A stretch of DNA of 62,382 bases, the filler included. It is 13 parts of 13 records of this genome, joined end to end, with 100 filler letters (N's around TTAATTAATTAA, not from the genome) between each part and the next. Parts side by side here need not be neighbours in the genome. Positions count along the whole stretch, not along the records: positions 38,807 to 45,278 come from SRR7504441_18443; 12 more parts are not named here. One strand, written 5' to 3'. The notes beneath the pieces were generated by a model. It made no database searches, was not told the DNA's origin, and worked only from the letters and a program-made list of their open reading frames with translations. The position numbers and the translations under genes were made by a program. Below, piece by piece: positions 100 to 45,278 of the stretch (position 1 is its first letter; each line of letters opens with the position of its first letter).

Positions 100-1384
100 T
101 TAAGTACGCCCAACCGCAAAGGGCTCCTTATCAAACCCGTGCACTAGCTTGAACAGGATCGCCTTGTGCGCGTGCAGCCGGTTCTCGGCCTGGTCGAAAA
201 CGATGCTCTTCGGCCCGTCGATCACAGACGCGGTCTGTTCCATCCCGCGGGCGGCCGGCAGGCAGTTCATAAAGATCGAGTCCGGGTGCGTCAGCGCCAT
301 CAGTTCGTCGTTGACCTGCCCCCCAACTGACCCCCCACGGCCAACCCGGGCGCCTGGTACGGCATGAACGTCTGCTTGCGCGCCTCCATCTGCTCGTTGT
401 CAATACCGTAGCTCATCCATGAGTCACAATAAACCACGTCAACCCCTGCCCCGCCCGCTGCCCCAGCGCCCCCAGCCCGGCACCGCTGACAGCTTCCCGC
501 GGGTCGCCGACGATCTCGAAAGAGCCGGCGCCCTGCGTGTCAGCTGCGAGGTTGTCACACTCTCGGATGACGGCCGGCTCAACGTCATACCCCTCGCCAG
601 ACGGCCCACACACGTTGATGTGGAAGCCCGTGGACACCGCCGCCCGCATCAGGTCGTAGGTCACATTGTTGGCCACATCCCCCAGGAAGGCCATCTGTCC
701 GAACTCGCACGGCCGGCGCCGGACCGCACCTTGATCCCTGCCAGCCCACCTGCACCCGGCCGAGTGAGCACAAAGCGCCCCCCCCCCGCGCACCCTTGGC
801 CTCGACGATCGCCTGCATATCGGCCACCATCTGCCCCCGGCTCGCGCCGGCCGCCCGGGCCGGCCGCCTGGGTGGGGTGAGCGAAGTCGTCGAGTCCGTT
901 GATGGTCGGGACCGTGGCGTGCTCGGCGAGCTCGGCCACATCTTGCCGGCTGTTGAGCCGGGCCATGATCACGTCCACGTACCGGCTGAGCACTCGGGCC
1001 GTGTCGGCGATCGTCTCCTTCTTCCCGAGCGGGGCTTTAGCGTCGATGGGGTAGTTGATCGCATTCCCTCCCATCTGTGAGCCCGGCTGGCGCTGGCCCG
1101 GGGGCGGGCGGTGCCTGGGTCATCCCGACCTGGAACGAGACGGAGGTCCGGAGCGACGGTTTCTGGAACAGCATGATTAGGCTCTTGAGCTGCATGGCAT
1201 CCGCGTACGCCTCGGGGTTGGCCTTCAGGTCGGCGGCACAGCGGAGCGTCTCCTGGATCTCCCACGGCGAGAAGTCCGAGATTTTGGTCAGGTGCCGCAG
1301 CCCCGCCTCGCTGCTCATCAGCCGCCCCGCGCAACCCAGAGCCGGCCTCGCCGTGCGCAGAGCGGCGCCCCCGAGGCTGTGCAT
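100..1384 (-). CDS. OTC: Ornithine carbamoyltransferase with probable mitochondrial presequence; 7 exons
   Basis: Spliced exons 1384-1115, 1074-868, 830-794, 749-730, 694-484, 445-354 and 315-100 give 350 aa. Motifs [48 protein letters not shown]-terminus is Arg/Ala-rich and free of acidic residues. Confidence 0.93.
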
Positions 1385-1402
1385 AGTTGAACTGGATGGC
1401 AG

Positions 1403-1431
1403 TTTATTCCGGATTTTTTTATTCCGGATTT
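1403..1431. promoter_or_regulatory. Duplicated motif TTTATTCCGGATTT in a putative bidirectional promoter
   Basis: 14-nt direct repeat at 1403-1416 and 1418-1431, inside the 87-bp gap between divergent ATGs at 1384 and 1472. Confidence 0.4.
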
Positions 1432-1471
1432 ACTTGTGACGTACTGACTGCCGAGACCCGCTGGCAGCGCG

Positions 1472-1774
1472 ATGGTGGACCAGCAGCAGGGGGCGGCGAC
1501 CGCCGAGCAGATCCAGCTGCAGCTGCGGCGGGCGGCGGTGCGGCGCCGCGGGTTTGTGCGCAAAGTCAGCCGAGAGGGGCTGGTGTTCCTCCCGCTGCTG
1601 CTGCTGATCCTGACCGTCGCGCATCATATTGTAGGCAGATCTCATCCAGATACTCCATTTCATCCTGCAACCTCTTCGGCTCGTCGATGTCCTGCGTGGA
1701 TGCAATCAAATTGTACTCGCACTGAATGGGCTGCGTACCGTCTTCATGGGGCCAGCTGTGGAAACTGGCTTTAA
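1472..1774 (+). CDS. Hypothetical small single-pass membrane protein
   Basis: GC-rich ATG-started ORF divergent from OTC, with one hydrophobic stretch (LVFLPLLLLILTVA); followed by AT-rich intergenic DNA. Confidence 0.45.
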   Translation: MVDQQQGAATAEQIQLQLRRAAVRRRGFVRKVSREGLVFLPLLLLILTVAHHIVGRSHPDTPFHPATSSARRCPAWMQSNCTRTEWAAYRLHGASCGNWL

Positions 1775-5551: not shown

Positions 5552-5651
5552 NNNNNNNNNNNNNNNNNNNNNNNNNNNNNNNNNNNNNNNNNNNNTTAAT
5601 TAATTAANNNNNNNNNNNNNNNNNNNNNNNNNNNNNNNNNNNNNNNNNNNN
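5552..5651. other. Artificial contig linker (44N-TTAATTAATTAA-44N), first of 12
   Basis: Identical 100-nt all-frame-stop spacers at 5552-5651, 11959-12058, 16497-16596, 20378-20477, 24715-24814, 28603-28702, 32787-32886, 38707-38806, 45279-45378, 48419-48518, 53197-53296 and 56711-56810. Genes are truncated at them, so adjacency across them is meaningless. Confidence 0.98.
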
Positions 5652-11958: not shown

Positions 11959-12058
11959 NNNNNNNNNNNNNNNNNNNNNNNNNNNNNNNNNNNNNNNNNN
12001 NNTTAATTAATTAANNNNNNNNNNNNNNNNNNNNNNNNNNNNNNNNNNNNNNNNNNNN

Positions 12059-16273: not shown

Positions 16274-16596
16274 CTGATTAAACAAAAATAATAAGTGTAC
16301 ACTTGGATTCGAGTTGTGACTCGTGAATTGTCAATTCGTTCATTCTTCAGTTATCTTCAGTGAAGCGACGCTGAAGCGACGCTGCGACACGAGCACATGT
16401 GCTGATGTGCATGAGTGAAGCTCGTGAAGCTTTGCACGGATCCCTTGCGCTGTTCCGCGCCTTGACTTGATTCATAATAAATGGATTGATGTTGGANNNN
16501 NNNNNNNNNNNNNNNNNNNNNNNNNNNNNNNNNNNNNNNNTTAATTAATTAANNNNNNNNNNNNNNNNNNNNNNNNNNNNNNNNNNNNNNNNNNNN

Positions 16597-20377: not shown

Positions 20378-20830
20378 NNNNNNNNNNNNNNNNNNNNNNN
20401 NNNNNNNNNNNNNNNNNNNNNTTAATTAATTAANNNNNNNNNNNNNNNNNNNNNNNNNNNNNNNNNNNNNNNNNNNNTTAGCCTTTAGAAGCGCTACTTA
20501 TGCTCAACACTGGCAACTAATAAATAACAAGTAATTACTTGGACACCCCAAAGTAGTCCGCATGCAAATGCCGTGAGCAATGCCCAACGAGCTAGGCTGG
20601 GCTGGTCCACGACCTCAAGGTGCCACGCCTTGTGGCGAGCAAGATGCCACTCCACTGACTCCAGTGACTTTATCAAAGCGAACAGGGGGGCGAAGAAGCC
20701 CACCGGCTGAGAAAACGAAGACGCACACCGGCTGAGAAAGCCAACAAGTGCACCTGCAGCCACCCTAAGATTCAGGCCGCGTTCCCTAGAGAGTGGGCAG
20801 TCGCCACTACTGCTGTCACTACCACTACCA

Positions 20831-24714: not shown

Positions 24715-25122
24715 NNNNNNNNNNNNNNNNNNNNNNNNNNNNNNNNNNNNNNNNNNNNTTAATTAATTAANNNNNNNNNNNNNNNNNNNNNNNNNNNNNN
24801 NNNNNNNNNNNNNNTCCAAAATTTATAATATTATTTATCTCCCCCTCCACAAGACCGACAAGACCCACCAAGATGGAATCGCAGCGTCCACATTATTTAT
24901 TAATTAATGTACATGTACCATCAATGACATTCAATGTACCATCAATTTTTACGTACTCTACTGTATCTATAAAGTTCTTTATTGTGACTAAGGCTAACTA
25001 AGGCAGCTACACTTCGGCGGAGCTCGATGTATATATGTAGTCCGTACGTCCGTACAAACCCTTGGCATATATCACTACGATCGTTATCATGACATTGTAG
25101 AAGTACGACAGGTCAAACCAGT

Positions 25123-28602: not shown

Positions 28603-28702
28603 NNNNNNNNNNNNNNNNNNNNNNNNNNNNNNNNNNNNNNNNNNNNTTAATTAATTAANNNNNNNNNNNNNNNNNNNNNNNNNNNNNNNNNNNNNNNNNN
28701 NN

Positions 28703-31700
28703 AGCGCCTCGACCTCGATCGGGTCGCCAAGTATGGTGCCGGTGCCATGGGTTTCCAATGAATGCATCTTGCAAATTGTAGTGCCCATCATGGCGATCCT
28801 TACAACGAGCTGCTGAGCTGGGCCACTCGGGGCTGCAAAATTGGTGCTTCGACCATCCTGATTAACCCCACTGCCAGAAAGGATAGCTAGTTGCCCTGCG
28901 GTTCCGCTCAAAGATGTCTGCAGCAGCGCTGTAAAGCAGCCCTCGCCCCGCCCAAAACCATCTGCAGAGCTATCAAAGGTCTTGCTTCGACCATCTGTGG
29001 CTAGTGGCAGGCCGGTTGACGGCACCCAAGACACCCAGTGTGGGTGCAGGCAGACTCCAGCTCCAAGAACTGCCTCACACCGGCCTAGCTGCAGGCACTG
29101 TCGACCTGCATCCAGTGCCACCAGTGACGACGAGCAGGCAGTGTCGACCGTGAGACATGGTCCCCGCAGCCCCAGAGTGAATGATATCCGAGCTGCTGCA
29201 GCACAGCCCGCCATCCCATGCACAGTGAACACGCTAGGGTCCCGGCCCCGAACCACCTCAGCCCAAGCTGACTGGCCAAACCCGACAAAGACCCCGAGCT
29301 CGGCCTGCAGCAGCATCTGTCTTGACCAGCCAGCTTGCACCAGCGCCTTAAATGAGGTCTCAAGTAGCAGCCTCTGATTAGGGTCAGTGGCCTTGATCTC
29401 AGCAGGGGTCATCCTGAAGAATGCAGGGTCGAATAGGTCGGCATGTTCCACAAAATGACCCGGGAGCAAAGTGGTGGTGGCTGGTAGCGCCGCAGAGTCA
29501 GCACGAGAAGCTGGTGGCAGGCTCAGCGGATCTGTACCAGAGCAAAGCATCCCTGACCATTGCGAAGCAAGAGAGCAGAAGCCACCAGGGACGGAACAAG
29601 TAACCGCAGAGATGGCAAGACCGTGTGCATACGGTTGCTTTGTCGACAAGTTTGGACCTGCGACCTGTGTGGCGTGAATTGTAGCCGAGCCTTTGTTTCC
29701 AACGTTGATGGCGCTCTGATCCTCGATGAAACTTGCAATCTCATTCACAGTAGGGAGACTAAAGATCAGCATTTTAGGCAGTCTCGGTCCTGTTGGTAAC
29801 AGGTGCTCTTGCAGCCGACGTGCCAGCTCAGCAGCCTGGTTCGACTTTACCCCGGCCTGCATCAGGGACTCTGACGGATCCATCTCTCGCCCCAGCATGG
29901 CAGTTATCTGAGTCAAGATCCTCCCTTCAATTGAGAGTTTGTCGACGATGTAGCTTGGGTTCTCCAGTCTACCCAGGTTAGCCTCCACCTCGTTGTCACA
30001 ATTGCCAGTTGCTTGGCGCATCTGCTCGACCTCGCTGCTCCTTAAACTGTGGATTGCTACCATGCTGACATGTTGCACACCTTGTGCACTCTCTGGTTGC
30101 TCAAGCACTATATGGACATTATCCCCGCTGGCAGACGTACCACTGATGCTGCTAATGACGGTACCCTGAGGCGGGAACCATGCGACTTTGCTTGCGGGTA
30201 AGATGAGACTGGAGGACCGGCGTACTAGAGGCACGGGCCTAGTGACACTTACATGGGATGGTACAGAGCGATGTTGCATAGCCGCAGCGATGGTCACCAA
30301 ACCAATGAATCCAGAGGCATATTCACTGTGTCCAAGGCATGATTTGTGGTTCACCACTGCCAAGGGAGTACTCCTCCCTGGTGGCAATATGGCTTGCATG
30401 ATACCCTGTAGCTCTGGAATATCTGAGGGAGGATTGCCCATCCCATGTAGATGTGTCATGGCGACTACACCGGCGCCCAGCCCAGCGAAAACAAGAGCTT
30501 GAGAAGCAGCATTAGCCATGGCATCAGGATCAGTTGACATGAGTGGCAGCCTTGCATCAGTACAAGTGGAACCCCAGCCTACTAATCGCATACAAGGAGC
30601 TTCTGCATCAGCACCGGGCTGCCCCTGCAGTATAAAGGCACAAGCTGCCTCACCAGCGACCATCCCATCGGCAAGCACCTGCCGACCATATGTTAGCTGC
30701 GTCACGCAAAAGCACTGCCCAAATTAATTGACTATGCACTACAAGACCACAGTGCAGTGTGTTAATTACATCGAGTGGTCGCATTATTCCTGACTGGGAA
30801 GTGAGCCTTGACTCGGACCTGGGCCTCAACAGCAGCTGTATTCCACTGATAATGCCGGTTTGACAATGCCCGCAGGTGATTTCAGAGAGGCCCCGTTCCA
30901 CAGCCCTGTGTCCACTAGTACAAGCTGTATCCAGATTGGCGTGCACGCAGTCTACCTTTAGCTCGTGAGCAACTATGCGCGGTACAAAGTACAGCGGCTG
31001 AGGTTTCACAAACTGGCTGGTGTCAGCAGCTGTAAATACACAGGGTAGCATGTTGCCTATCTTGCTCTGCTCCCAGCCAGCATCTGCGGTTGCTTCCCAT
31101 GTCACAGCAACTAGCATTTGCATGTGAACGTCCAATGATGCTGTGCTTGCTGATCTAGAAACCACATGATGGGAGTCCAAAAACGACCCAACCAAGAGTG
31201 CATCTGTAGCTTGAGTGTGCTGACATGCTTGGAGGTAACGCTGTGGTAGTGTCTGGCTAATTGTACATTGCATGGCAATGAGTGTAGACCATAGTTTGCC
31301 AGGGGAAGTAGCGTTCAAAGGAACGCGACAGCTTACGCCTACAAGTGCAACAGACGTGGCTGTTGAGATAGTCGATACTGCATACAAGCCTGCCTCCGTA
31401 GCTTGAGCTGCCTCCGCGTTCGAGCTGGCCGCTAATGACTGTAAATAAGCGACGAGCTCGCTTATGGTCGGGTATTGAACAAAGCTTGCCAATTCCAGGC
31501 GCCAACCCAGCCGCTGCTCTAGCTGAGTACGCAGCTCCATGGTTGCAAGAGAGTCTACCCCAGAATCAGCCAGAGGGACATCTAGGTCTAGCTGAAGTGG
31601 GCCTCCGACCGCGTGCACCGCCTCGCTTACTGCTGCAACAAGCGCCGAGCGTTGTGCCTCAGATGTCAGCCCCAGCAGCGAGGTATTTTGATTCGCCCCA

Positions 31701-32786
31701 TCTGCTGCCGCCAAGGTATTTTTATTCGACCTCAGCTCGGTGAGTTTAATATTCACCAGCTGTTCTTGTCTGAAATGGTGCTTGAAGCCAGCCATGAGGT
31801 GATGTGTCCTCAGTCTTTCCATTGAGTACTCGTCAATCACCATGAATGTTGCAGTATCAGCATGATGTGCGGCCTGGAGCGCACGTAGAGCCTGGGGTGC
31901 AGGCATCCCGTTGAATTCAGCAAGGCCGGCACGCTTGGCCAATACTTTGCCATAACGCTCTGCGCTTCCGATATGCGACCATACACCCCACTGGACACTG
32001 AGGCACGATCTCCCTCTGCCCGTGCCCCACTTGCAGAACGAGTCCAAAGCCGAATTTGATGCTGCGTACGAAGAGTCACCGAGGGGACCAAACAACGCTG
32101 CAATCGAGGAGTATGCGAGGATCCAAGTCACTGGAGCCTGCTCCTGTAACGCATACAAATGTTTGGTGCCCTGAACCTTTGGTGCCCAAGCACGCAACAT
32201 GTCCTTGACTTCTAGATCACGAATTAGACCGCCTGCTGGTACTAGTGTAGACTGAATGACACCCTGAGTCGCTCCACCCACAAGCAGAGTCTGGACTTGC
32301 GAAAGCCTAGTTGCATCACAGGCGACAGCAGCTACAGACACTGAATACCTTTCAATTGTTTGGAGCACATGCTCTGTAGCAAGATCTTTCACTGCCCCAC
32401 TCCGGGATGTGAGAGTAATGGTTGCCGTACCGTTCTCGGCAAGCCACCGGGCTGTTTGAAGTCCTACCCCTCCCAGGCCCCCACATATTAGTACATTGGA
32501 TTTTGCCAGCGATGATGTAAAGGGTAACGGTATCCTGCCAGCAGCCACAGAAAGTCGAGCTTGCACGGCAAAGACGGTCTGAGCCTCGATCGAGCTGTTA
32601 TCACGTGTCATTGGCTGTGCAGCATTCGGCGCTAGTTCAAACCCAGTAGCATCAAACCAGCCTTGCCACTGCTCACGTGTCTGGGGCGCAAAGTCACGAC
32701 CATCGGAAAACAGCCACCATCCTTCGGTCAGCCCCCATGTGCAATCCGCGATGGCTGTGTCTTCCACTTCGGTGACCTCAGAGAGG
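28703..32786 (-). CDS. Type I modular polyketide synthase fragment (MT-KR-ACP-KS-ACP-KS), partial at both ends
   Basis: MT end WGLTEGWW; KR GGLGGVG and YSS...SYAASN; ACP GVDSL; KS DTACTS/HGMG/GHSE; ACP GVKS; KS DTACSSSLVA, NQDGRS, ETHGTGT. Intron 30679-30769. Confidence 0.92.
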
Positions 32787-34393: not shown

Positions 34394-37300
34394 TTATTTC
34401 AAATTAGCTTCTAACGTCGTCAAATCGAATTTCCACTCGCCGCCTAGAAGTTGCAACTCCAACTCGGCAAGATTGGCGTCGAGCACGATCGACTCCACTC
34501 CAACGACCAATCCACTCAGCTTGCTCACATTCGCTCTCCACAGCTCACATTGGCAGCCCGATTCCCACAGCACCGCGTCATTTGATCTGAAGAGCGGCAG
34601 GTGGACAGTTGCAGCTGCACCGTAAGGCACTGTCACATTGGCATGAAAGCTGCTCTCAGTGGCGTGCCAGTCAAACAAGACAGCACCCCGCTTGACCGAA
34701 GCTGCCTTAAGCTTGCGAACTGCCACTGGCAATGCCCGGAGGACAGTTCGGTCGGCGGTGCTCCTCGGATCAATTCCAGCAAGCTGATACATGAACAGGC
34801 CGATCCCGGCTGCCAGTGCTGGGTGGTTCTTGCTCACACCAGTGCCATGCAAGTCTTGCCAGGACTCCCATATTGTGCCAGGAGTTTCATGGGTTGCAAA
34901 TGGCTTAGAGGCACCCTCCACCTAATGGCTGTGTCAACACAGCGTGCTTTTACTTAACGCACCATGTATCCCCATGATGGGCAGCTGGTCTGGGTGGCAA
35001 CTGCAAAGGCAACATCTTCATAGCTGCACAGTACTCCTTTAGGTGCAGCGGCTCGCCGACTCACCCATGAGATGTGAGGACCTCCAGCAGGAACCGAGAG
35101 CCAATGATCCCACAGTTCGTGTGATTACCAAGGGTTACAATACTCGACACTAGGCTACCGAGTACTGAATGCAGATGCGCCTCAGGGACCAGTTCCATAT
35201 ACAGTGCGAACACCTACAAGCTTTGCTTCAGAGCTCCAATAAATCACAGCAATGCATCCTACCTGCAGGCTCTGGATTGGGGTGCTTCCACCACACCTAG
35301 AGACGGACGGCTCGTGTGAGTCACACCTGTCCACGTAAACTCCAGCAACTGGATCAAAGAACTGGCGGTGATAAGCCACTTTCATCTCTTCGAGCTGTGC
35401 AGAGAAGCGCTTGGCGTCTGGCAGCCGCCCAATTGCTGTGGCCATCTCAGCCACACGCCAGACCGCAAGCATATGAGCAAACGCCGAAGCTGCTGCCTTT
35501 GGGCAATTGGTGTTGCATCGCCCACTGGCACTGAAGTCCCCACAGTATGGCAGCTGGTCGCAGCAGAGCCAATCACCAGTTGAAGCCATGAGGTAGAGCG
35601 ATTTTGAAATATTTGCCCACGGCTGGGCTGGCGCGTTCCTAGTCAAAAACTCAGTGTATTCCACTGCGGCCTGGTAGTGCTTGTGCACGATCTCGACTCT
35701 CCCAGTCCTGGTCCAGACCTCCCATGGAATCGTGACTACAGCAACAGCCCAGTTTGGGTCACCTGGGAAGCCACCTGGCCACCCTCCCCATGGCACCACC
35801 TGCCACGAAAATCTCAGTTTACATCAATAAGCTCGGCTACATCACTAATTGCTCCGCTCGCATTTAGAGTTGGCGCCCATATCTTGTTGCATGAGAACCA
35901 GGGTGGCCGTACGTGCTCCTCAGGACCTCCGGGGAGACCGTTCCGGATCAAATCGTCCACTAGGTCCTGAGACGCAACTCCAAACTTCCAGGCTGTTGGC
36001 TCTGGGTGCGTCGAGCCTGCGGTGCCGTAATGCATGCTTTGTCGGGGCCAGCTTGAGTGGAAGGTAGCAGTGCTGTTGGGGACGTCGCACCCAAGCCGCT
36101 GTATGTCGTGCATTGTGCGGAGCCAGTTCGAATAGAACAAGTCCATGTCAAAGTTGAGCGAGGCCTCGGCGCTCGAGACTGCAGAATACTAGTCAGCCAT
36201 TATACGGAAGATGCTTGGCAAGCGGCGCACCTTGGCTGTCAGCGGTCCAGCCATGCCTTTCACGCTGCGGGCAATCCTCCGGATGCGAGTGAAGATTGGA
36301 CTGCTGAGTATAAAGTACTGCGGACTGTATGCGATTGAGTGTGCGACCCTGTGGGCTGTCAGATGAGAAACTGACCCTGCCTCTTGGCTGCACCATCGTG
36401 TTCACACGCAGCACTCTAACAGTGTCAACAGTCGGAGTGGTCCCTTCTGGCAACCCCGAAATGGCAGCATACCGCACTCCGTACCACGAGAACGAGGGGC
36501 TAAAAACCTCTTCCTCTCCGGTCCCAGCAGCAATGAACAGAGACGTCTGGTTGGCTTGGTTGCCACCTTGGTCCTGGTCGAGTGACGCTGGTCCGAGTGG
36601 TGTCGGATCACATGGCCAGCCGCCTTCAAACATCGTCGATACTCCGGGCTGGGCTGTCGGGCACTGCTGAGCCATTACATCGCCGCAGGGCGATAGGAAC
36701 TCAGCATGCCGCAATAGCACCTTGGTCCCCCGTGGTAGCTTGACTCTCAGCTCCGTCATTCCTGCGAAATTCTCGCCAAAGTCATAAATCCATGAGGTCA
36801 CTGGCTGTTTAAAGGGGGACAAGCAGTCTTTCGGGAGCAGCGCGCATCTGAATTCGTCACCGAGTTTAAGTTTCGCCAAATCTACAGCTGGCAGGACCTC
36901 CACCGACGGCAGCTGCCTTCTTTCACCAACCGGTGGGCATGGCTCAGATACATTCCGAATCAGATGGATTGCGCTACCGGCTGCTGGCTGGAAGAACGTG
37001 CACCCAGGCGGGAGTTGCGTCCCGACGGGGCAATGCTTGTCTTGTTTGAATACCCAGGCCCGCACTTGCTCGTGAGTGGTCTGACCACAGCAACTGCACC
37101 CGGTACAGTTTGCAGATTGGCCACAGCTCAACTTGCAGGCCGGCTGGCTGTCTACGTTCAGTGACTTGTACAAGACGCACCGCGGGAGACCCTTGACTGC
37201 CTTCACCTGCCAAGTGACCTGTACGCAGGCCCCTGTGTGGTTGCATTGCAGCTTACACCCTTGCTCGCTTGCAGTGTCGACAGTTTGAATTGTCTCTCCG

Positions 37301-38508
37301 TAATAATAGCCTCCCGACACCAGGCGCATGGGCGAACTTCGGAGGCTTGCATCATATGTAACCACACGCTCGCTGTGTGGAATCAGCAGCTGCTTCCGAA
37401 TGGAGACCGCTCATCGGATCTCGGCCACCCCGATTGCAGGCATTGTCATGAGGGTGAGCATCCCTTGACCGGGACCTTCGTACGCTGTGGTTGTGTTGTA
37501 TGGCAATGCAGGGCTCCAGCGGTCGTCCAGCGCGATGGCAGGGTCCGAGTCCCAGCCAGATTGCTCTCGCCTCGCATCGTACACCTCTCCATGATAAAGG
37601 TGGGTATAAACGATCGGATTGGCGCTAGTGGTGACGTTCCAACCCGATCCAACCCCAGAGCTGATATTGATCCGTTGGCCGTTGGTATATATTATCGAGA
37701 GCTGCTGGAGATAGCCCCTGCAGCTGTCCCGGGCTGCGTGAGCATCGAGGCAGAACGCCTGATCGATGCTCCCGTAGTGGCAGAATCCGAGTCGGACGGC
37801 AATCACGTTGAGCCCGGGTGATCGGAGCAGGCTGGTCACATTGTACGCTCGGTACAGCAGCCTCATGTTAGGGACGGTGCTCCATCCAGGATCCATCATC
37901 TCGGCCCCGATTTGGCTGCCGAATCCAGTGACTGAGACTCCGTTCAGACTCGCCGCAAAGCAGCCCAGGCCCGAGGCGAACATAGTGGCCTGGGCCACTG
38001 GTTGGCTATCCAACTCGAACAGCCGGCGCAGCTGGGTCCCGCCCCCAATCCAAGCAGCGCCCGGCCACTTGACTGCTGGTGCGAGCCCGGTGTGGAACCG
38101 GCAGTGCGTGGAGCGATTGAGCACCCGGAGCTGGAGGAGATAGCCCGTATCGGGGGAGAGCAGCCCGGGCGGGAGGCTATGGACGCGGCCGCGGGAGGCG
38201 GAACTGCTGTAGAGCTCAGTGCTGGTGGAGGAATCCACCAGGCGGATGGCGACTGCGGATGGCACCTGGGGGCAATCCCGCATGCAGCGCCAGTGCCGAT
38301 GAGAGGAGTGCCAGCGCCACTCTGACTGGTGGGGGCATTTGAGTTGCCACGAGACCGTGATCGGGTCGGCCGACGGGTCAATGAAGAGCGCGGTATCGGG
38401 GTCAGTGGGATAGCAGGCCCTGCGGTCGATCATCAGCTCGGTGACCACAAGCATTCCCTGGCAGCAGCTTAGAAGCGGCAGCCACAGCAGCATCGAACAC
38501 CATGCCAT
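34394..38508 (-). CDS. Secreted GH78 alpha-L-rhamnosidase-like protein with Cys-rich insert
   Basis: Signal peptide; LYRAYNV, GEVYDARREQSGW, YDFGENFAG, FSWYGVRY, SNLHSHPEDCPQRERHGWTADSQ, PSWGYM, TIWESW, SKNHP. At least 5 GT-AG introns; in-frame TGA at 37411-37413 (see findings). Confidence 0.88.
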
Positions 38509-38974
38509 TAAAATATTGTGGAGATTTTCCCCGTTAGCCGAAGGTAGATCTACTTGTAGACTACTTGAATACCGGTACGAGCATGCGTCCGTACAGTACC
38601 TCGGAGTAGATCTACACTGTACGAGCACTGCCGTACAAGTAATATTTCTCTGCCTCTTTATCTTAATAAAATACATTGCATATAACACTCGAATCTAACA
38701 CTATACNNNNNNNNNNNNNNNNNNNNNNNNNNNNNNNNNNNNNNNNNNNNTTAATTAATTAANNNNNNNNNNNNNNNNNNNNNNNNNNNNNNNNNNNNNN
38801 NNNNNNCTCAGCTTTATTTAGATTAGACTTAATTAATATATTCTAGCCTCTACCGGTCGGTATACCGTACGCGTGTACCAGTATTCTAGCCGGGGCCCAC
38901 TTGTACAGCTGTGCTCAGGAAGGCACGCGTGAGAAATTAAACGTGAGCAACGACCACAAAAACTTATATTAGTA

Positions 38975-40597
38975 TCAACCCAGTGTATGTTTCAATTGGT
39001 TCACAACTGCTTCGAGTGCGTCTATCGCTACACATCCCAACATTACACGTCGATCTACCTCGCTGCCTTTAAACCACACTTGACACACCCACTCGGCGCG
39101 TCGCAAGTATAGTCCATCCTCCACGTGCACGAGGTTGTACGCCCACTGGTCTTCCACCCCTAGCTTCCGCTTCTTGGCACTACCTTCGCCACTCTCGGCT
39201 TGCTTCAAGGCACTAACAATCAGCATGCGGTCCAGCTTGAATGCAGCGCCGACCTCCTCGCCGCCGGCGTTCTCGGCTGCCCAGCTCAGGTCTTCCCGGA
39301 GCACTTGGTGCAGGGGCGGCACCAGCTGCCGAGGGATATGCTTCGACCTCGAGTGCACCAGCAGCCCGCACCCGGCCGAACCTCCCCCCAGCATCTCCAG
39401 CGCCTTCTGCAGGCCGTCAGTGCCGTCCCCACTCGAGCGCTGCTGCGAACAAGCACTGTGAAGGCTTTGTACCAGCTCGGCCGGCACGCTTGGCATCGGT
39501 AGCACACTCGCAAATCCGAGCATTTGCTCAGCTACCAAAGTCGAGCAAGAGACCACCGCTGTCCCCAGCTCTACCTGACCCACAAGCAGCGCTGCCAGTC
39601 GGGCCTCCCAGCCCTCCGGTGCCCTCAGCGCTGCATAGCTGCTCGCTCTGAGCATGCCACACACATCCTCCTGGAAATCCTTCTTCATGTCTACAAAATC
39701 AAAACTGGTCGGCACCACCGGCTCTGCCGCGGCTGCCGACTGCACAAACTGTGACGGGTCCGTGAAGCCGGCCTGCAGCCGTGCTTCCCGGGCCAACTCC
39801 AGAGAGAATCCACACGCCTCCCTCGATCGGCTCTCGATCGGGCTCACGCAACGGTGGGCGCAGCTGCACGCTTTGGCTTCCCAGAACTCGATTATCAGCA
39901 CCCGACGGCTCCCGCGGGTGATCGGAGCTACACTGTGGTACTTGTGGCTTACAAACACGATTGCGTCGCCTCGGCCAAACTGGTGGCTCACCAGTCGAGG
40001 CTCGGCCCCGACCCCCTCGAGCGTGCGGAAGGCGCCGCCCTCGAAATCGGCCTCGCTAGAGAGCATCATGTCAACAGTGAGCAGCGAGCCAGTGTCGTGA
40101 TGCTCCGGCTGGCTCAGACCGGCCGGGGCGGAGTAGTGGTGGTACTCGATGCAGCGGACGTTAACCTCTCGGCCGTACTGCTTGCCCGCGAGCAGCCCCC
40201 AGCCTTGCTCGAGATCCACCCTCCAGGCGAGCGCGGCTATCCGGTCGAGCAGACCTGGGAGGGTCCTCTGGAAGGCGCCATCGGTGTGCAGATAAGTGGT
40301 GCTCCAGTCGCTTGTGGGCACAAAAGCCCCGCGCTGATCGCGGCAGACGCACCCAGCGTCCGGTCTGATGTGAGTGTAGGCCTGCTCGACCTGCGGCCCC
40401 GCTGTGGTGGTCAGAGCCTCGCTGGGCACCTGTTCGATCTCCTTGGGCGAGAGGAATCCGCGCTGGAGCACCGGGGAGCTCTTCTGGGCTGCGACCGTGT
40501 ACGGCAGCGGCTGCTGGTCCACCATCACGCCGGCCGCGAACCCCGAGCGAGGCAGCATCTCGGCCAACGCCAGGCTCGGCGCGGCTGACGTCGCCAT
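38975..40597 (-). CDS. BCP1: 2OG-Fe(II) oxygenase fused to a BCP1/BCCIP domain
   Basis: N-half: RCIEYHHY, HHDTGS (HxD), FEGG, GDAIVF, KYHSVAPITRGSR. C-half: SFDFVD...LLVGQ..LGT...GFASVL...GLLVHSR..HIP.QLVPPLH.VL.EDL.WA...HVED (BCP1 pattern). One frame; probable in-frame intron 40391-40429. Confidence 0.8.
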   Translation of the reverse strand: MATSAAPSLALAEMLPRSGFAAGVMVDQQPLPYTVAAQKSSPVLQRGFLSPKEIEQVPSEALTTTAGPQVEQAYTHIRPDAGCVCRDQRGAFVPTSDWSTTYLHTDGAFQRTLPGLLDRIAALAWRVDLEQGWGLLAGKQYGREVNVRCIEYHHYSAPAGLSQPEHHDTGSLLTVDMMLSSEADFEGGAFRTLEGVGAEPRLVSHQFGRGDAIVFVSHKYHSVAPITRGSRRVLIIEFWEAKACSCAHRCVSPIESRSREACGFSLELAREARLQAGFTDPSQFVQSAAAAEPVVPTSFDFVDMKKDFQEDVCGMLRASSYAALRAPEGWEARLAALLVGQVELGTAVVSCSTLVAEQMLGFASVLPMPSVPAELVQSLHSACSQQRSSGDGTDGLQKALEMLGGGSAGCGLLVHSRSKHIPRQLVPPLHQVLREDLSWAAENAGGEEVGAAFKLDRMLIVSALKQAESGEGSAKKRKLGVEDQWAYNLVHVEDGLYLRRAEWVCQVWFKGSEVDRRVMLGCVAIDALEAVVNQLKHTLG

Positions 40598-40718
40598 CAC
40601 CGTCGGCTGTCCGGCCGGACGGAAGTCTCTGCAGAGCGGTGCGGTCGAGCACGGTCGAGCTGCGACGTCTGCGGTCACTGCAGCCACCGCCGTCGGAGAG
40701 TAGGCCCAGCTCCGCCCG

Positions 40719-42020
40719 ATGACCGCGTTGGTGCGCGAGCTGCTGCGGCCGCCGACTGCGGAGGAGACGGCTTCGTTCTTCGCTGAGCTGAGGCTTCCGG
40801 CAAAGCTGGAGGTGCGCCAGACTGCGCCCGACCCCGGCTCGGCAGACCACGGCAAAGGGCTGTTCGTCAAACCGGGGTGCAGCTTCGCGGCCGGTGAGCT
40901 GATCATGCGGGAGCCGGCCCGGATAGCGCTGCAGCACGAGCAGTCGCGGGCGGAGTCGCTCTGCTGCGCCCGGTGCTTCAAGTACTTGGAGTCGGTGCCG
41001 GCCCAGATCCTGCACCAGCTCGAGGGGGCCGGCTTCCGGGTGAGCAAGCTCGATCTGCACCAGGGTGTGCTCGATCGGTGCGACAGCCTCGCCCCCGCGG
41101 TGCAGTGCAGGAACCAGTGCGGCGCAGTGTACTGCAGCGCGTCGTGTGAGCAATCGAGCTGGGAGGGCTCGCACCAACTGTTGTGCAGTGTAGGCTGCTG
41201 CAAACCCGAGGCGATGGGCGAGTTTCAGGAGATGTGCGACCAAGTGAGCGATCACCTGTGGCTGGCTGCAGCGATTGTGGCCAACACCGTGCTGGCGAGC
41301 AGAGAGACGATGCGTGCCGACCGCAAGCTGAGCAAGGAGGCGGCGCTGGCCAAGGCGTGGACTCCATGGAGGCAAGGGGTCAAGACCGCGTGGTGGAACT
41401 CGGCCGGCAACGCCCAGGGGCTGTCGCAGGCTGATTTCGAGGAAAGTGTGCGGGGGGTGGCGACCGAGGCGCTGCAGCTGCTGCGAGCCGCGCTGCCGGG
41501 CGAGGCTTTACAGTTCCCTGCACTGTTTGAGCTTGAGTGCTTTGCTGCTATCCTGGGGATGCTTGATCTGAACTGCATGGGAGTCCGAGTGGGATGCCCG
41601 GTGAGTCAGTACTTGGATGGAGTGGACAAGCTTTCGGATGCGGATGAGGGTGCACTCGACGCCAAGCAGGACCTGGAGCAGCTCAGGCAGCTGCTGCCAG
41701 GGGTTGGAGATGTGTTCTGTGATGGCACCGGCTTCTTCTCGATTCAGTCCATCATCAACCACAGTTGCGAGCCAAACGCCTGGTCCGCCAAGTGCGAGCA
41801 GCAGTTGGACGGACAGATTGCGATTAGGGCAATAAGGGAGATCCAGCCCGGGGAGGAGCTGTTTATCTCGTACATCGAGTCTGATTTGCCCGTACAAGCG
41901 CGCCGAGAGCGTTTGCTACAAACGTACCAATTCGAATGCAACTGTGGCAAGTGTTCGGCCGAGTTGTCAGACGTATTAGAAGGACATGTTGCAACGAAGA
42001 GAAAACGGGACGTCGATTAA
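40719..42020 (+). CDS. SMYD5: SET-MYND lysine methyltransferase, SMYD5/ATXR2-like, intronless
   Basis: GKGLF, CARCFKYLE, C..C...YCS..C....W...H..LC, CDGTGFFSIQSIINHSCEPN, GEELFISYI, YQFECNCGKC. Confidence 0.85.
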   Translation: MTALVRELLRPPTAEETASFFAELRLPAKLEVRQTAPDPGSADHGKGLFVKPGCSFAAGELIMREPARIALQHEQSRAESLCCARCFKYLESVPAQILHQLEGAGFRVSKLDLHQGVLDRCDSLAPAVQCRNQCGAVYCSASCEQSSWEGSHQLLCSVGCCKPEAMGEFQEMCDQVSDHLWLAAAIVANTVLASRETMRADRKLSKEAALAKAWTPWRQGVKTAWWNSAGNAQGLSQADFEESVRGVATEALQLLRAALPGEALQFPALFELECFAAILGMLDLNCMGVRVGCPVSQYLDGVDKLSDADEGALDAKQDLEQLRQLLPGVGDVFCDGTGFFSIQSIINHSCEPNAWSAKCEQQLDGQIAIRAIREIQPGEELFISYIESDLPVQARRERLLQTYQFECNCGKCSAELSDVLEGHVATKRKRDVD

Positions 42021-42100
42021 AGCTTGTATTTAATTATAGTGTATACATACAATAGTTTACATCACTGTGCGCGTGCAAGTTACGTGCAAGTGAGAATTGT

Positions 42101-44557
42101 TTATCTTTTGAATAGAGGAATATCGTCGAGCTCGGCTACTACCACAGCAGTTGTTCCGCCATGGTATACTGCGCCTGTCTTGTAATGCTTCCATGCTATC
42201 TGACTGCCTGCACCAGGGAAGTACACCGTACGATTAGTGGAGCCTTGCTCGACAATGGGTGCGACAAAGTACTTGTCTCCGAACATGAACTCGTCGCCAA
42301 TGGTCCAAGTGCGGGCATCCTCCGGGAAGTCATACCACAGGTAGCGCTGCAGTGGCACGCCCCGTTCGCTGGCTATTTGCATCTGCTCATATATGTAGCC
42401 CTTGAGTGAAGTTCTGAGTTTGATTGCTGCTGTGGCGGCCCGCGTCATCATCGGAGTCCAGCCGGTCCCCCAAATGCGCGTGTCTCGCGCACCATGCTGC
42501 CGCATGATCGGCTGGGTCACAGACACCATGAAATCCCTAGATAGGAACTCCTCACTGCCCTGGCAGAAAAATCCACCTATATCTACAGTCCATAGCAACT
42601 GCCCCGAAAGCTGTGCATCGAGCGAGTCGTAAACGTGGTTGAGATAGTCTGCAAACTGGCACCCGTGATCGCCATCCCAGTTTGCTCCAAGCCTCCAGCC
42701 ACCAGCGGCAGTAGCTCGGCTAAGTGTCATTGCTGGCTCAGTGAGACCTTCCCTCCTCAGCTCTTCAATCCCTTCGGCAAACGTGAGCTGGTGCATCATC
42801 GGATACAGAGTGCCCACCTCTCTATTTGTGCCAGCAGCGAATTCAGTTTCACAAAACTTACCGCTCGCCTGACAGGCAAAGGGGCCAGTGCCTGGCTTCA
42901 CACAAGGACAGGTGGCCTTCTCGTGATTTTGCTGTTGGTAGCAGAGCGTCTTGTAGCCGTTGCACTCGAACACCCCCCGACAAAGCGTGGCCCACATCGT
43001 ACCATTCTCACATCCAAAGGTCTCCCCCAATTTGCAAACATTTGGCTTTCCACCTGTGGTACCCGGATTGCTCTGCTTGATTAGTGACACACTGCAAGCT
43101 TCTTCATTGCTCGCTTGGCCGAAATTGTGGATCTCGAGAGAACTCGACGATGGACCTGCCCACATTGCTGGGCCCAGCGGTGCTAGTGGCAACTCCCAGG
43201 TATCTTCGCCCACGATCTCGTTCCCGTCCAACCAGAACATTGTTATGCCGTTGCTGACCAGTGTCGCCTTAACAGATGACCACAGTGCCGCCCGAGCTTC
43301 TGGGATAAATGGATCGTAACGGCACGACAAGTTGTGATCGTCACTTGTTCCGTTACTGCGGCAGATTGGGACGAGCTCGCCCGCGTTCGTGCGTTGGTGG
43401 ACCATCCACTGTTTTTCAATGAACTGTCGCCCTCCTACAAAGTACGGACTGCTGAAATTTTGCTCTATGTGCACGTGTGCCATGACAAAGGTGTTGTTCG
43501 CTTTGAGCTTAGCGACCATCGACTTTGGATCCGGCCAGCGTATCGGGTCAAAGGCCGTACAGCTGTCGCAGGCCTTATATCCTGGGCCATCAAGCACTAG
43601 TACATCCACATGCAGGCCCAACGCACTAAAGTTGGCCACAATCTCTTCTGCTTCGTTCTGGCTGTTGATTGCATCCTTGGAGTGCCAGTATCCGGTTGCC
43701 TCCTGCGGGAGTTGGGGCACGTGTCCGAGCATATCAGCATACTGTCCCATTATAGCAGACGCCCGCGCAGGGCCAGCAGCCGGAAGTCCCGCTGGCCAGG
43801 TTGTGATCACTAAGTCGATATGCGTGGCACCCCCCAGCGGAGTGCTCAGCTGCACAGTCTGGTTCTTGGCGCTGGCAGTACCATAAGTCCAGCTCTGCGT
43901 GTTGTCAAAAAGCCCGAATCCGAGCCCTTCGGAGGACACGCCTCCAGCAACAATCCACGGCATACCATTCAGCATGCCGCACTGTGCCCCAAGCCCGCCA
44001 TCTGTGGGCCCTGGGGCGTTCCCGATGGGCGTCCCGAAGTGCAAATCCTCAACGGTCTGCTGGCCCCTCCGCCCCGGATTGAGCATGTTGCCACCATCGC
44101 CAGAGCCGCAGCTGCTGCCAAACTCACAGCCGCCACCACACCGGCAGCCCCCGCCGTAGAAGCGCCGCTGCGTGGTGCCATCGCCGACGGCTAGGGTGAG
44201 ACTGAGAGGGGGTGGGGCGCTGCCCTGAGCGACTGCCAGCAATGGCTGATTGGTTTGAGAGAGAAGCGTGGCGCCGTCGGAGATGCGGATAATTGTGACC
44301 CTGCTGTCGGCGCCAACGGTGACCATGATGTTCCCGCTGCTGACGTTGCTGCCCTCGACGGGTGCGGAAGGGCCCCGACCGGGTGGCGGCAGGAGATATC
44401 CCAGAGCGGACGTGTTGACGGTTTGGGCAGCTGCCGAGATCTGGACCCGAACAGTGTTGGGTCCCCATTCGCGAGCCTGCACGCGCTGCTGCTGCGCTCG
44501 CGCCGTGCCGCCGCAGACCAGGAGCAGGAGAGCCAGGTAGTGCCAGGGGAGTGCCAT
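42101..44557 (-). CDS. Secreted GH31 glycosidase (alpha-xylosidase/glucosidase-like), intronless
   Basis: Signal peptide; GYWHSK, FDPIRWPDPKSMV, nucleophile FWLDGNE, acid/base WDGD, WTVDIGGF, MRQHG, EFMFGDKYFVAP. Confidence 0.9.
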   Translation of the reverse strand: MALPWHYLALLLLVCGGTARAQQQRVQAREWGPNTVRVQISAAAQTVNTSALGYLLPPPGRGPSAPVEGSNVSSGNIMVTVGADSRVTIIRISDGATLLSQTNQPLLAVAQGSAPPPLSLTLAVGDGTTQRRFYGGGCRCGGGCEFGSSCGSGDGGNMLNPGRRGQQTVEDLHFGTPIGNAPGPTDGGLGAQCGMLNGMPWIVAGGVSSEGLGFGLFDNTQSWTYGTASAKNQTVQLSTPLGGATHIDLVITTWPAGLPAAGPARASAIMGQYADMLGHVPQLPQEATGYWHSKDAINSQNEAEEIVANFSALGLHVDVLVLDGPGYKACDSCTAFDPIRWPDPKSMVAKLKANNTFVMAHVHIEQNFSSPYFVGGRQFIEKQWMVHQRTNAGELVPICRSNGTSDDHNLSCRYDPFIPEARAALWSSVKATLVSNGITMFWLDGNEIVGEDTWELPLAPLGPAMWAGPSSSSLEIHNFGQASNEEACSVSLIKQSNPGTTGGKPNVCKLGETFGCENGTMWATLCRGVFECNGYKTLCYQQQNHEKATCPCVKPGTGPFACQASGKFCETEFAAGTNREVGTLYPMMHQLTFAEGIEELRREGLTEPAMTLSRATAAGGWRLGANWDGDHGCQFADYLNHVYDSLDAQLSGQLLWTVDIGGFFCQGSEEFLSRDFMVSVTQPIMRQHGARDTRIWGTGWTPMMTRAATAAIKLRTSLKGYIYEQMQIASERGVPLQRYLWYDFPEDARTWTIGDEFMFGDKYFVAPIVEQGSTNRTVYFPGAGSQIAWKHYKTGAVYHGGTTAVVVAELDDIPLFKR

Positions 44558-44703
44558 CTAGGGTCCTTTGTTGTCTAGACTCAGGCTCTGTCAGCCCGCT
44601 GCAGAGCTGGGTGTATCAGGCCGTTAGAAAAAAAAAGAAGGCAAAACGTTGAGGGCAGGAGTCAAGATCACACCACGGGTTTTTTTTGCCTCAGAAGCAG
44701 GGT

Positions 44704-45278
44704 ATGAGCTGCCTACCACGCGACGAGAGCACGGTTGGCGTTCAGGCGCTGATCTGGACCCAATTCGCCGTGGGACTTCTCGCGTTCGTGACCGGCACTT
44801 TCTGGTGGGGCTCAACCGCCCCGGAACCCGTCCAATCGGAGGAGCCCGCGGATGAGGAGCAGATCCCTCTTTGCGGTGCGGCTTCAGAGTGGCGCAAGGA
44901 GTGGCGCAGTCTGGTCCACGCCCGCAAACTGGCCGACCAGTGCTCTTTCGTGGATCACGTCCGGTGCGAGCGCAACTTCTGCCGCGACGCCTCCGATCCG
45001 CATTGCGTGAGGCCGCCACCGGCACCCTCTGGCATGTCTCGACCGACCGTCTTTTCACGGTATGCGCTCTACCGCTGCCTGTTCCGGCAGACGCTGTTCC
45101 TGTGCACACTGCTGAGATGCGTCGGCCTCGCCTGCTTATGCGGGAGCCTTGGGACCTGGCTGTGGCTGGTCAAGTATGAGGCGGCTGTCGGGGACCGGTC
45201 TGCATCAGATGTGGCCTGGATCGACGCTAGTGCGACTGCATGGCAACGGGTCCGGGGCGACTATGTGTTCTTCCCCAT
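44704..45278 (+). CDS. Hypothetical membrane protein, 3' partial
   Basis: ATG 44704 is divergent from GH31; hydrophobic segments; frame open to the contig edge. Confidence 0.55.

Follow-up and report, generated by a model that had tools for sequence, protein, structure and literature searches.

The window analysed here, the whole 62,382-nucleotide stretch of DNA, is a chain of 13 contigs from a marine eukaryote, each approximately 3–6.5 kb long, with 12 artificial joiners. In one of these contigs (SRR7504441_18443, 38807–45278, 6472 bp, without N), an open reading frame (ORF) on the minus strand encodes a protein, P0001, in which an Fe(II)/2-oxoglutarate (2OG) oxygenase is joined to a domain of the BCCIP/Bcp1 type. 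An initial annotation of the window had placed these two parts in one uninterrupted frame, and this was confirmed, as all 540 codons are free of stops. The stop codon of the fusion gene is located 168 bp from the contig end. The fusion gene has the following features.

38975–40597, minus strand: whole coding sequence of P0001, 540 amino acids (aa) and a TGA stop, in a stop-free frame
39749–40597, minus strand: oxygenase module (aa 1–283), with a double-stranded beta-helix core at about aa 145–239 and aa 1–29 predicted to be disordered
40094–40102, minus strand: H166-x-D168, the proposed Fe(II) ligands
39905–39937, minus strand: segment from H221 (distal Fe ligand) to R231 (binder of the 2OG C5-carboxylate), in SHKYHSVAPITRGSR
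39812–39862, minus strand: C246-x-H248-R-C250 ... C262, a Cys/His motif specific to the oxygenase family
39707–39748, minus strand: inter-domain linker (aa 284–297, FVQSAAAAEPVVPT), between the oxygenase end and the BCCIP match
38978–39706, minus strand: BCCIP/Bcp1-like domain (aa 298–540), with the Pfam match (aa 298–480) at 39158–39706
39164–39175, minus strand: KKRK (aa 475–478), read from the sequence, a possible nuclear localisation signal (NLS) inside the BCCIP-like domain

The oxygenase module has many relatives. A HMMER search of 1.84 billion representative sequences returned 1308 at E ≤ 1e-3, of which 747 reach E ≤ 1e-10 and 132 reach E ≤ 1e-30; the best 150 of the 1308 representatives were examined, and the closest, P0010 (372 aa), was 57% identical to the oxygenase half. 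In an alignment of 75 family members, the invariant columns included R148, E151, H153, H166, S171, T174, G229, R231, E237, W239 and R249, and D168, H218, K219, H221, C246, H248, C250 and C262 were at least 90% conserved. A profile made from this alignment matched the PKHD-type enzymes PiuC and Sbal_3634 with E values between 2e-5 and 4e-5, and prolyl 3-hydroxylase 1 with an E value of 0.013; it placed H221 and R231 on the distal His and the 2OG-binding Arg of PKHD-type hydroxylases. An AlphaFold2 model of the module, built with the family alignment, had a predicted local distance difference test score (pLDDT) of 82.1 and a predicted template modelling score of 0.81, with disordered stretches at aa 1–29, 64–73 and 283–290. 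Foldseek matched this model at E ~1e-8 to PiuC, 3dkq, 6n1f, PHD2, the Chlorella-virus collagen prolyl hydroxylase (vCPH) and the P. putida prolyl 4-hydroxylase (P4H) of EF-Tu, with a probability of 1.00 for PiuC, PHD2 and P4H. When the model was compared with 48,161 chains using VIA-align (150–185 residues aligned), the highest Z scores were obtained for 6n1f (15.2; root-mean-square deviation (rmsd) 3.7, 175 residues), 2rg4 (14.6), vCPH (14.4) and Chlamydomonas P4H (14.1, 21% identity), together with Trichoplax PHD (13.9), P. putida P4H (13.8), mimivirus lysyl hydroxylase (13.4) and PHD2 (13.0). The prolyl-hydroxylase-like domain with a full set of HxD...H...R residues that the initial annotation had recognised was thus borne out, both by conservation in the 75 relatives and by the fold matches. 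Judged by its motifs and its predicted model, the N-terminal half is a complete prolyl/lysyl-hydroxylase-like 2OG oxygenase, and it is probably catalytically active.

The Cys/His stretch behind the core had been taken for a linker (CSCAHRC...C). It is instead a near-invariant motif of the oxygenase family, and C246, H248, C250 and C262 form a putative zinc site. In the ESM Atlas, the oxygenase lay beside unnamed “Fe2OG dioxygenase” clusters, for which Haptophyta were the commonest among the few recorded taxa. The oxygenase is a member of a large unnamed family of marine eukaryotes, which has a CxHRC...C tail and no Pfam model of its own. The Pfam model 2OG-FeII_Oxy_3 (PF13640) was matched at E ≤ 0.1 by 46 of the 75 family members, and most of the relatives scanned also remained below the Pfam gathering score. 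Single relatives carry other partner modules, namely ankyrin, TPR, TLDc, WD40, PhyH and methyltransferase domains (Pfam, 44 relatives of at least 420 aa), and a ZZ finger was found in another member. Of these partners, ZZ, TPR, ankyrin and WD40 bind proteins, and such company favours the mechanism proposed below. Further architectures of the family were seen in P0006, P0007, P0125, P0156 and L043:827-2215; they comprise an N-terminal Cys-rich ZZ-like finger, a TLDc plus methyltransferase-like region, a second PhyH-type domain and TPR repeats.

BCCIP and Bcp1 are essential and conserved proteins, and their hand-over of the ribosomal protein uL14 is only partly understood. The assignment of the C-terminal half to this family in the initial annotation was upheld by the Pfam model BCCIP (PF13862), which matched aa 298–480 over profile positions 5–184 of 205 and scored 53.6 bits (E 3.3e-14), well above its cut-off of 27 bits. 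Among the 30 clusters closest to this half in the ESM Atlas, 29 were BCCIP clusters (best 0.92, with 206 of 256 features shared), and the six best sequence matches in the PDB were all Bcp1 (7c4h) or BCCIP (8exf, 8eqb, 7kyq, 7kys and 8exe). By these matches, the C-terminal half is a BCCIP-family member, though a very divergent one. It has no acidic, DE-rich, NLS-bearing N-terminal extension, and the domain begins 14 residues after the oxygenase. To our knowledge, no chemistry is associated with the GNAT-like fold of BCCIP and Bcp1. Excerpts of bioRxiv 10.1101/2020.12.08.416925 describe the fold of BCCIP as an altered GNAT-like fold.

The stand-alone homologues P0003 and P0004 stop at the alignment column of Q283 and the BCCIP profile match starts at aa 298, which gives a linker of 14 residues. 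This leaves no room for a terminator, a promoter or a separate start, and it makes the gene a domain fusion rather than a read-through of adjacent genes. The absence of a stop or spacer between the halves, as claimed earlier, was therefore confirmed. The accompanying claim that the BCP1 part has no ATG of its own was correct within the linker, but M304, the only Met near the linker, lies six residues inside the BCCIP match.

The C-terminal half also has the properties of a maintained reading frame. None of 20,000 shuffles of this half was stop-free, its composition gives P ~6e-5 for 256 open codons, and the other two sense frames across it contain 15 and 6 stops. The GC contents of the three codon positions (GC1/GC2/GC3) were 0.66/0.51/0.81 for aa 1–284 and 0.69/0.44/0.67 for the remainder, both of which are coding-like; GC3 falls to 0.47 in the last 45 codons of the fusion. 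Upstream, the frame is open to 41203 and has an in-frame ATG at 40906. A longer, 643-aa reading from this ATG was considered and rejected. The start was kept at 40597 because the upstream extension overlaps the coding region of the divergent SET gene described below and has a non-coding GC pattern (0.53/0.67/0.85). Neither P0001 nor the 643-aa reading had an exact match in a collection of 15 billion proteins.

Public sequencing runs were then searched for the gene. Twenty-two runs shared sequence words with it (each at most 0.17 of the words); four were aligned, with seven short contigs, of which five longer ones (134–375 nt aligned) lay on or beside the fusion gene. One contig, X5, comes from a poly(A) metatranscriptome and crosses the junction. 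It is 198 nt long with 1 mismatch, covers 39642–39839 and bridges the linker, reaching 65 nt into the BCCIP side and 91 nt into the oxygenase side. Contig X10 of a second study (184 nt, 1 mismatch) covers 39789–39972, and a third contig, X13, spans 40429–40573. The DNA run X1 covers 38859–39235 and 40307–40440, so that the DNA contigs miss the junction; the stretches 39236–39641, 39973–40306 and 40574–40597 of the gene are without contig cover, and no joints were reported in the aligned contigs. Three coding differences were observed in other samples, two synonymous (codons 227 and 297) and one non-synonymous (R499Q). The DNA contig with R499Q also reaches into the 3′ flank (38859–38974), where it has three substitutions and a 2-nt deletion. 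Independent samples thus back the junction through the RNA-library contigs, which agree with transcription across it but are too short and shallow to establish transcript ends, strand or one full-length mRNA. As a whole, we are confident, though short of certain, that the fusion is a real single gene.

No fusion of this kind had been known to the initial annotation, and none was found in our literature or sequence searches. Among the articles listed on BCCIP with 2-oxoglutarate, and on 2OG hydroxylation, ribosomal proteins and RPL23, none described such a fusion. Among the best 150 of the 1308 representatives, none had BCCIP beyond the oxygenase, and matches were confined to the oxygenase part. 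Two of them, P0064 and P0149, had longer HMMER envelopes; P0064 is similar by BLASTP only as far as aa 250, and a Pfam scan of P0149 gave no BCCIP match. Metagenome contigs carrying the oxygenase family were collected in a profile-guided scan, which gave 80 loci, and none of nine long oxygenase ORFs from these loci had BCCIP. The oxygenase–BCCIP architecture is therefore new as far as these searches reach, and it is a single instance. Genes neighbouring the oxygenase in the metagenomic loci were also surveyed. Dropping 15 near-duplicates left 65 non-redundant loci, and 86 ORFs of at least 260 aa were scanned from those that were 2.5 kb or longer; no recurrent partner other than RING fingers (2 members) was found in the first 25 of 49 families.

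Since the window consists of joined short contigs, gene neighbourhood is meaningful only inside each 3–6.5-kb piece, and the true neighbours of the fusion gene are a SET-domain gene and a GH31 glycosidase gene only.

40598–40718, no strand: 121-bp spacer between the divergent start codons, presumably a shared promoter region
40719–42020, plus strand: 433-aa lysine methyltransferase of the SET-MYND type, divergent from the fusion gene, with the motif NHSCEPN and the post-SET motif CNCGKC
42101–44557, minus strand: GH31 glycosidase

The start codons of the SET-MYND and fusion genes are thus head-to-head, 121 bp apart. The Pfam SET model matched the neighbour with E 8.2e-13 and 49.1 bits and spans aa 80–385, and its best PDB matches were SMYD3, SMYD2 and SMYD1 (E 5e-14 to 2e-6), covering aa 336–418. 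A Cys/His pattern at aa 82–156 is kept in the metagenomic locus L055, while zf-MYND was unmatched at E ≤ 0.001. The protein ends approximately 15 residues past the post-SET motif, without a long C-terminal domain.

When the 80 loci were searched with the neighbour, its aa 5–178 matched L055 at 1665–2207, on the same strand and in the same frame as the L055 oxygenase. The two sequences are 31% identical across 192 columns, with E 4e-19 in tblastn and 7e-22 in BLASTP. L055:1035-2207 (plus strand) is one frame that contains HYD, SHKYH, R and CQHRC, a 20-residue linker and then the methyltransferase homologue, which runs from its very N-terminus until the contig end cuts the frame. A second locus has an oxygenase gene (L048:1508-2365, plus strand) tail-to-tail with an intron-containing SET gene (L048:2834-3562, minus strand) that has the motifs NHACDAN and post-SET FECRCMLC; in this locus, a RING-finger ORF is located upstream of the oxygenase (1013–1510, minus strand). 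The association between oxygenase and SET is rare: besides the window, two of the 80 loci show it (29 loci are at least 3 kb long), and no SET homologue was present in 157 protein relatives. By sequence comparison, it involves a specific subfamily whose N-terminal region is unmatched in solved SMYD chains. A complex prediction for P0001 and its SET-MYND neighbour gave scores of 0.17 and 0.20 against a mark of 0.34, in a run without controls, and counts neither for nor against an interaction.

Bcp1/BCCIP is described in excerpts of PMC11248248 as a dedicated chaperone (“escortin”) of uL14. According to the same excerpts, yeast uL14 lies sandwiched with Bcp1 on one side and Rkm1, a SET methyltransferase, on the other; the basic loop 42–50 is shielded by Bcp1, which also triggers release of the methylated uL14, and the N-terminal 40 residues of Bcp1 carry an NLS and are dispensable for uL14 binding. 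The C-terminal half of P0001 resembles these proteins in matching PF13862 above the cut-off and in being colinear, if weakly, with 7c4h, 8exf and 7kyq, but its domain is not stand-alone, and the oxygenase replaces the acidic NLS-bearing extension. As in the Bcp1–Rkm1–uL14 system, so far as it is presented in those excerpts, a BCCIP-family module is paired with a SET lysine methyltransferase, here by the head-to-head gene arrangement and, in L055, by an oxygenase–SET fusion. In contrast to that system, the fusion adds a third activity, the oxygenase. Because they recall Bcp1–Rkm1–uL14, the SET-MYND neighbour and the L055 fusion provide circumstantial support for a ribosomal protein client. SMYD-type enzymes can act on ribosomal proteins, since SMYD5 trimethylates RPL40 according to partial texts of PMC11369092 and bioRxiv 10.1101/2024.10.10.616381. 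The neighbour of the fusion gene is SMYD-like too, and ends soon after the post-SET motif; its PDB matches cover aa 336–418 only.

For the oxygenase, a precedent is Ofd1, which hydroxylates Rps23 bound to the import adaptor Nro1 (portions of PMC5690285). By analogy with the Ofd1–Nro1–uS12 and OGFOD1/Tpa1 systems, as they appear in portions of PMC5690285 and PMC4637303, P0001 may be an oxygenase that acts on a chaperone-bound ribosomal protein. Unlike Ofd1 and Nro1, the two partners would be covalently joined in P0001, and the chaperone family and presumed client differ. P0001 also differs from OGFOD1, Tpa1 and Ofd1 in having one oxygenase domain; Pfam at E ≤ 1 gave only PF13862 and PF13640 and no family of the OGFOD1 group. 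The fold is similar to that of Tpa1 (VIA-align Z 12.7, rmsd 3.6, 178 residues aligned), yet Tpa1 has no lead over other 2OG oxygenases. With PiuC, Sbal_3634 (3dkq), vCPH (5c5t), Chlamydomonas P4H (2jij), PHD2 and P. putida P4H (4iw3), which were the best profile or fold matches, the module shares HxD...H...R, but the identity to PKHD-type hydroxylases and P4Hs is 10–21%, and the AQ-x-T...LS segment at the N-terminus and the CxHRC...C tail are particular to the algal family. The OGFOD2-like proteins (PF25238), orphan animal 2OG oxygenases, were similar in ESM Atlas features only (0.94–0.95), which is no more than a lead. An hmmscan of the protein and its relatives gave no match to PF25238, a model whose presence in the library is unsure, and the titles and abstract openings of the OGFOD2 papers listed name no substrate.

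Taken together, this information led us to a tentative mechanism, which, resting on analogy, we consider somewhat more doubtful than probable. The BCCIP-like module would serve as an arm that holds an unassembled basic protein, and the held client would be presented to the tethered oxygenase for a hydroxylation that requires O2, Fe and 2OG. Oxidative removal of an N-methyl group from the client is a less likely alternative. Hydroxylation is favoured over demethylation by the prolyl/lysyl-hydroxylase-like fold, but AlkB-type folds score almost as well (Z 12–13), which leaves oxidative N-demethylation some probability. The SET-MYND methyltransferase would act on the same client, in concert with the oxygenase. 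By family precedent uL14 is the leading candidate; that it is the actual client we nevertheless regard as unlikely. The structural claims of the initial annotation hold, while the delivery of the oxygenase to uL14 or the pre-60S particle is, like enzyme activity, a protein substrate, the client’s identity and cooperation with the methyltransferase, something that we infer.

Several observations weigh against this reading. Only one instance of the fusion is known, and its assembly is fragmentary; moreover, the C-terminal half is so divergent that no pairwise relatives of it were found. A word-based search of 5.8 billion proteins (6977 candidates) yielded no relatives of this half at E ≤ 0.001 or at E ≤ 10; the search covered lengths of 297–945 aa, and stand-alone relatives shorter than 297 aa lay outside that range. 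Pattern matches were obtained for the C-terminal half in metagenome contigs (214) and for the whole protein in viral contigs (2), none of which was confirmed. The half was not detected in the 157 collected relatives of the oxygenase (best phmmer E 0.28), nor was BCCIP detected by Pfam in any of 15 relatives that continue for 150 aa or more beyond the oxygenase domain or of 44 relatives of at least 420 aa. It was likewise missing from the 80 metagenomic loci (255,171 bases, 1631 ORFs; best tblastn E 0.81, phmmer E 0.13), a set in which similarity at the level of Bcp1 (~14 bits) would give E ~0.001. The colinear PDB matches to Bcp1 and BCCIP, over aa 26–192 of the half, were weak (E 0.15–1.2); the canonical “ER-x-N-x-P” stretch of these proteins reads SRSKHIP; and a single-sequence AlphaFold2 prediction, made with no relatives to align, had a pLDDT of 38.3. 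Of the two Pfam families expected on one protein, BCCIP was above its cut-off but 2OG-FeII_Oxy_3 scored 20.2–21.3 bits, below the gathering score of 27. Small-molecule oxygenases were interleaved in the fold ranking (SnoK Z 13.9, AsqJ 13.3), and because their Z scores are nearly equal, the fold alone does not favour a protein substrate over a small molecule. The oxygenase family is, from its domain content, promiscuous in its partners. The 46 PDB matches of the SET neighbour (E ≤ 0.01) were SMYD, KMT2, SETMAR, SUV39/Clr4-type and AKMT chains, with no SETD6 or LSMT chain among them, whereas Rkm1 is compared with the SETD6/LSMT class in the excerpts of PMC11248248. Finally, the RNA-library contigs are short, have a depth of 2.7–4.3 and could come from DNA, and one of the three coding differences, R499Q, changes the protein.

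These points bear differently on the alternatives. It is very unlikely that the fusion is an artefact in which two genes were joined by chimeric assembly of a metagenomic contig, or by a sequencing error through which a stop was lost or the frame shifted. The contigs are short (3–6.5 kb), as metagenome bins typically are, the 15-billion-protein collection does not contain the exact protein and the DNA contigs leave the junction uncovered; yet 14 residues between the domains leave no intergenic space, both halves share one frame and a similar codon-position GC pattern, no minus-strand ORF in another frame extends either domain at the junction, and X5, an RNA-library contig of another study, spans the linker (65 + 91 nt) with 1 mismatch. 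It is highly improbable that the fusion is recent and either functionally neutral or in decay, with a BCCIP-derived half that no longer has a role. Such a fusion would explain a singleton with a strongly diverged C-terminal half, the GC3 of 0.47 in the last 45 codons and the non-synonymous R499Q, but 256 codons have stayed stop-free (P ~6e-5), the BCCIP profile aligns colinearly along 180 of its positions with no frame breaks, and two of three coding differences are synonymous, against three substitutions and a 2-nt deletion in the 3′ flank. A retrocopy or repeat-mediated origin was considered as well, and no repeats of note flank the fusion gene.

If the fusion is real, its BCCIP-like domain might still be a paralogous pseudo-GNAT adaptor without a role on uL14 or the ribosome, with a canonical BCP1 elsewhere in the genome and with the oxygenase and SET-MYND enzyme acting together on another client, such as a histone or other basic protein. 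We consider this rather unlikely. The C-terminal half is so divergent that it may be a paralogue with a changed function, and with SRSKHIP in place of the canonical stretch its client specificity may have changed; moreover, it is without the acidic NLS-bearing N-terminus of Bcp1, SMYD-type enzymes act on many substrates, and the oxygenase family combines with many unrelated modules. Partial texts also credit BCCIP with an altered GNAT-like fold (bioRxiv 10.1101/2020.12.08.416925) and several partners, e.g. FAM46/TENT5 (PMC10075960). Conversely, uL14/60S is the sole experimentally supported client class of the BCCIP core in the excerpts of PMC11248248, a SET methyltransferase beside a BCCIP domain is the pairing described for uL14, and no result points to an alternative client. 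It is improbable that the half is instead the organism’s only BCCIP orthologue and still a uL14 chaperone, to which the oxygenase was added as a sensor, so that chaperone function or ribosome assembly would respond to oxygen, iron or 2OG. In that case the target of hydroxylation might be, instead of uL14, the methyltransferase, an assembly factor or the chaperone. The maintained frame and the possible NLS KKRK agree with such a sensor, as does the tie between O2 sensing and an unassembled ribosomal protein through Ofd1/Nro1 (portions of PMC5690285), but an essential and universally conserved chaperone would be expected nearer to the consensus than 53.6 bits and pairwise E values of 0.15–1.2.

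By the Rosetta-stone principle, the fusion with an oxygenase argues for BCCIP-type domains being able to offer their clients to enzymes that modify them, and the independent link of the oxygenase family to SET-MYND adds to this argument. It names candidates for testing, namely hydroxylation of uL14 or ribosomal proteins and its interplay with lysine methylation, and it flags a large eukaryotic family of 2OG oxygenases with the CxHRC motif (1308 representative clusters at E ≤ 1e-3). The value of the finding is limited by the singleton, the fragmentary assembly and a function deduced by inference. A long shot is that marine algae possess a three-part client-modification module, in which a BCCIP-type arm keeps hold of uL14 or another basic ribosomal protein before its assembly, while a tethered Fe(II)/2OG hydroxylase and a co-expressed SET-MYND enzyme both mark it. 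If true, the incorporation of a 60S core protein would depend on the supply of oxygen, iron and 2-oxoglutarate, which would place an iron- and carbon-status checkpoint on phytoplankton ribosome assembly, and P0001 would be the first indication of the BCCIP fold as a substrate-presenting platform for modifying enzymes.

Elsewhere on the fusion contig, the SET-MYND and GH31 glycosidase genes are convergent, with approximately 80 bp between their stop codons (window 42020–42101). Judged by this gap and the 121-bp head-to-head spacer, genes are packed very densely on the contig, apparently without introns. At its very beginning (38807–38836, 30 bases), the contig is represented by two short deep records in DNA run X1 (depths 27 and 62), both with loose ends on either side; this contig end resembles a repeat or a low-complexity element. 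The joiners were read in the window sequence as N44-TTAATTAATTAA-N44, with stops in all six frames, at the following positions.

5552–5651, 11959–12058, 16497–16596, 20378–20477, 24715–24814 and 28603–28702: artificial contig joiners
32787–32886, 45279–45378, 48419–48518, 53197–53296 and 56711–56810: artificial contig joiners
38707–38806: artificial contig joiner before the contig of the fusion gene, which begins at 38807

Two of the other contigs contain pairs of adjoining ORFs of note. Modular type I polyketide synthase domains (ketosynthase, acyl carrier protein, ketoreductase and ketosynthase) are found in two overlapping ORFs at 28651–32611 (minus strand), with a frame change near 30650–30663. 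On a separate contig, an alpha-L-rhamnosidase extends over two ORFs (36193–37329 and 37411–38676, minus strand), one with the N-terminal domain and the other with the concanavalin-like and six-hairpin domains, which suggests an intron or a frameshift in between.

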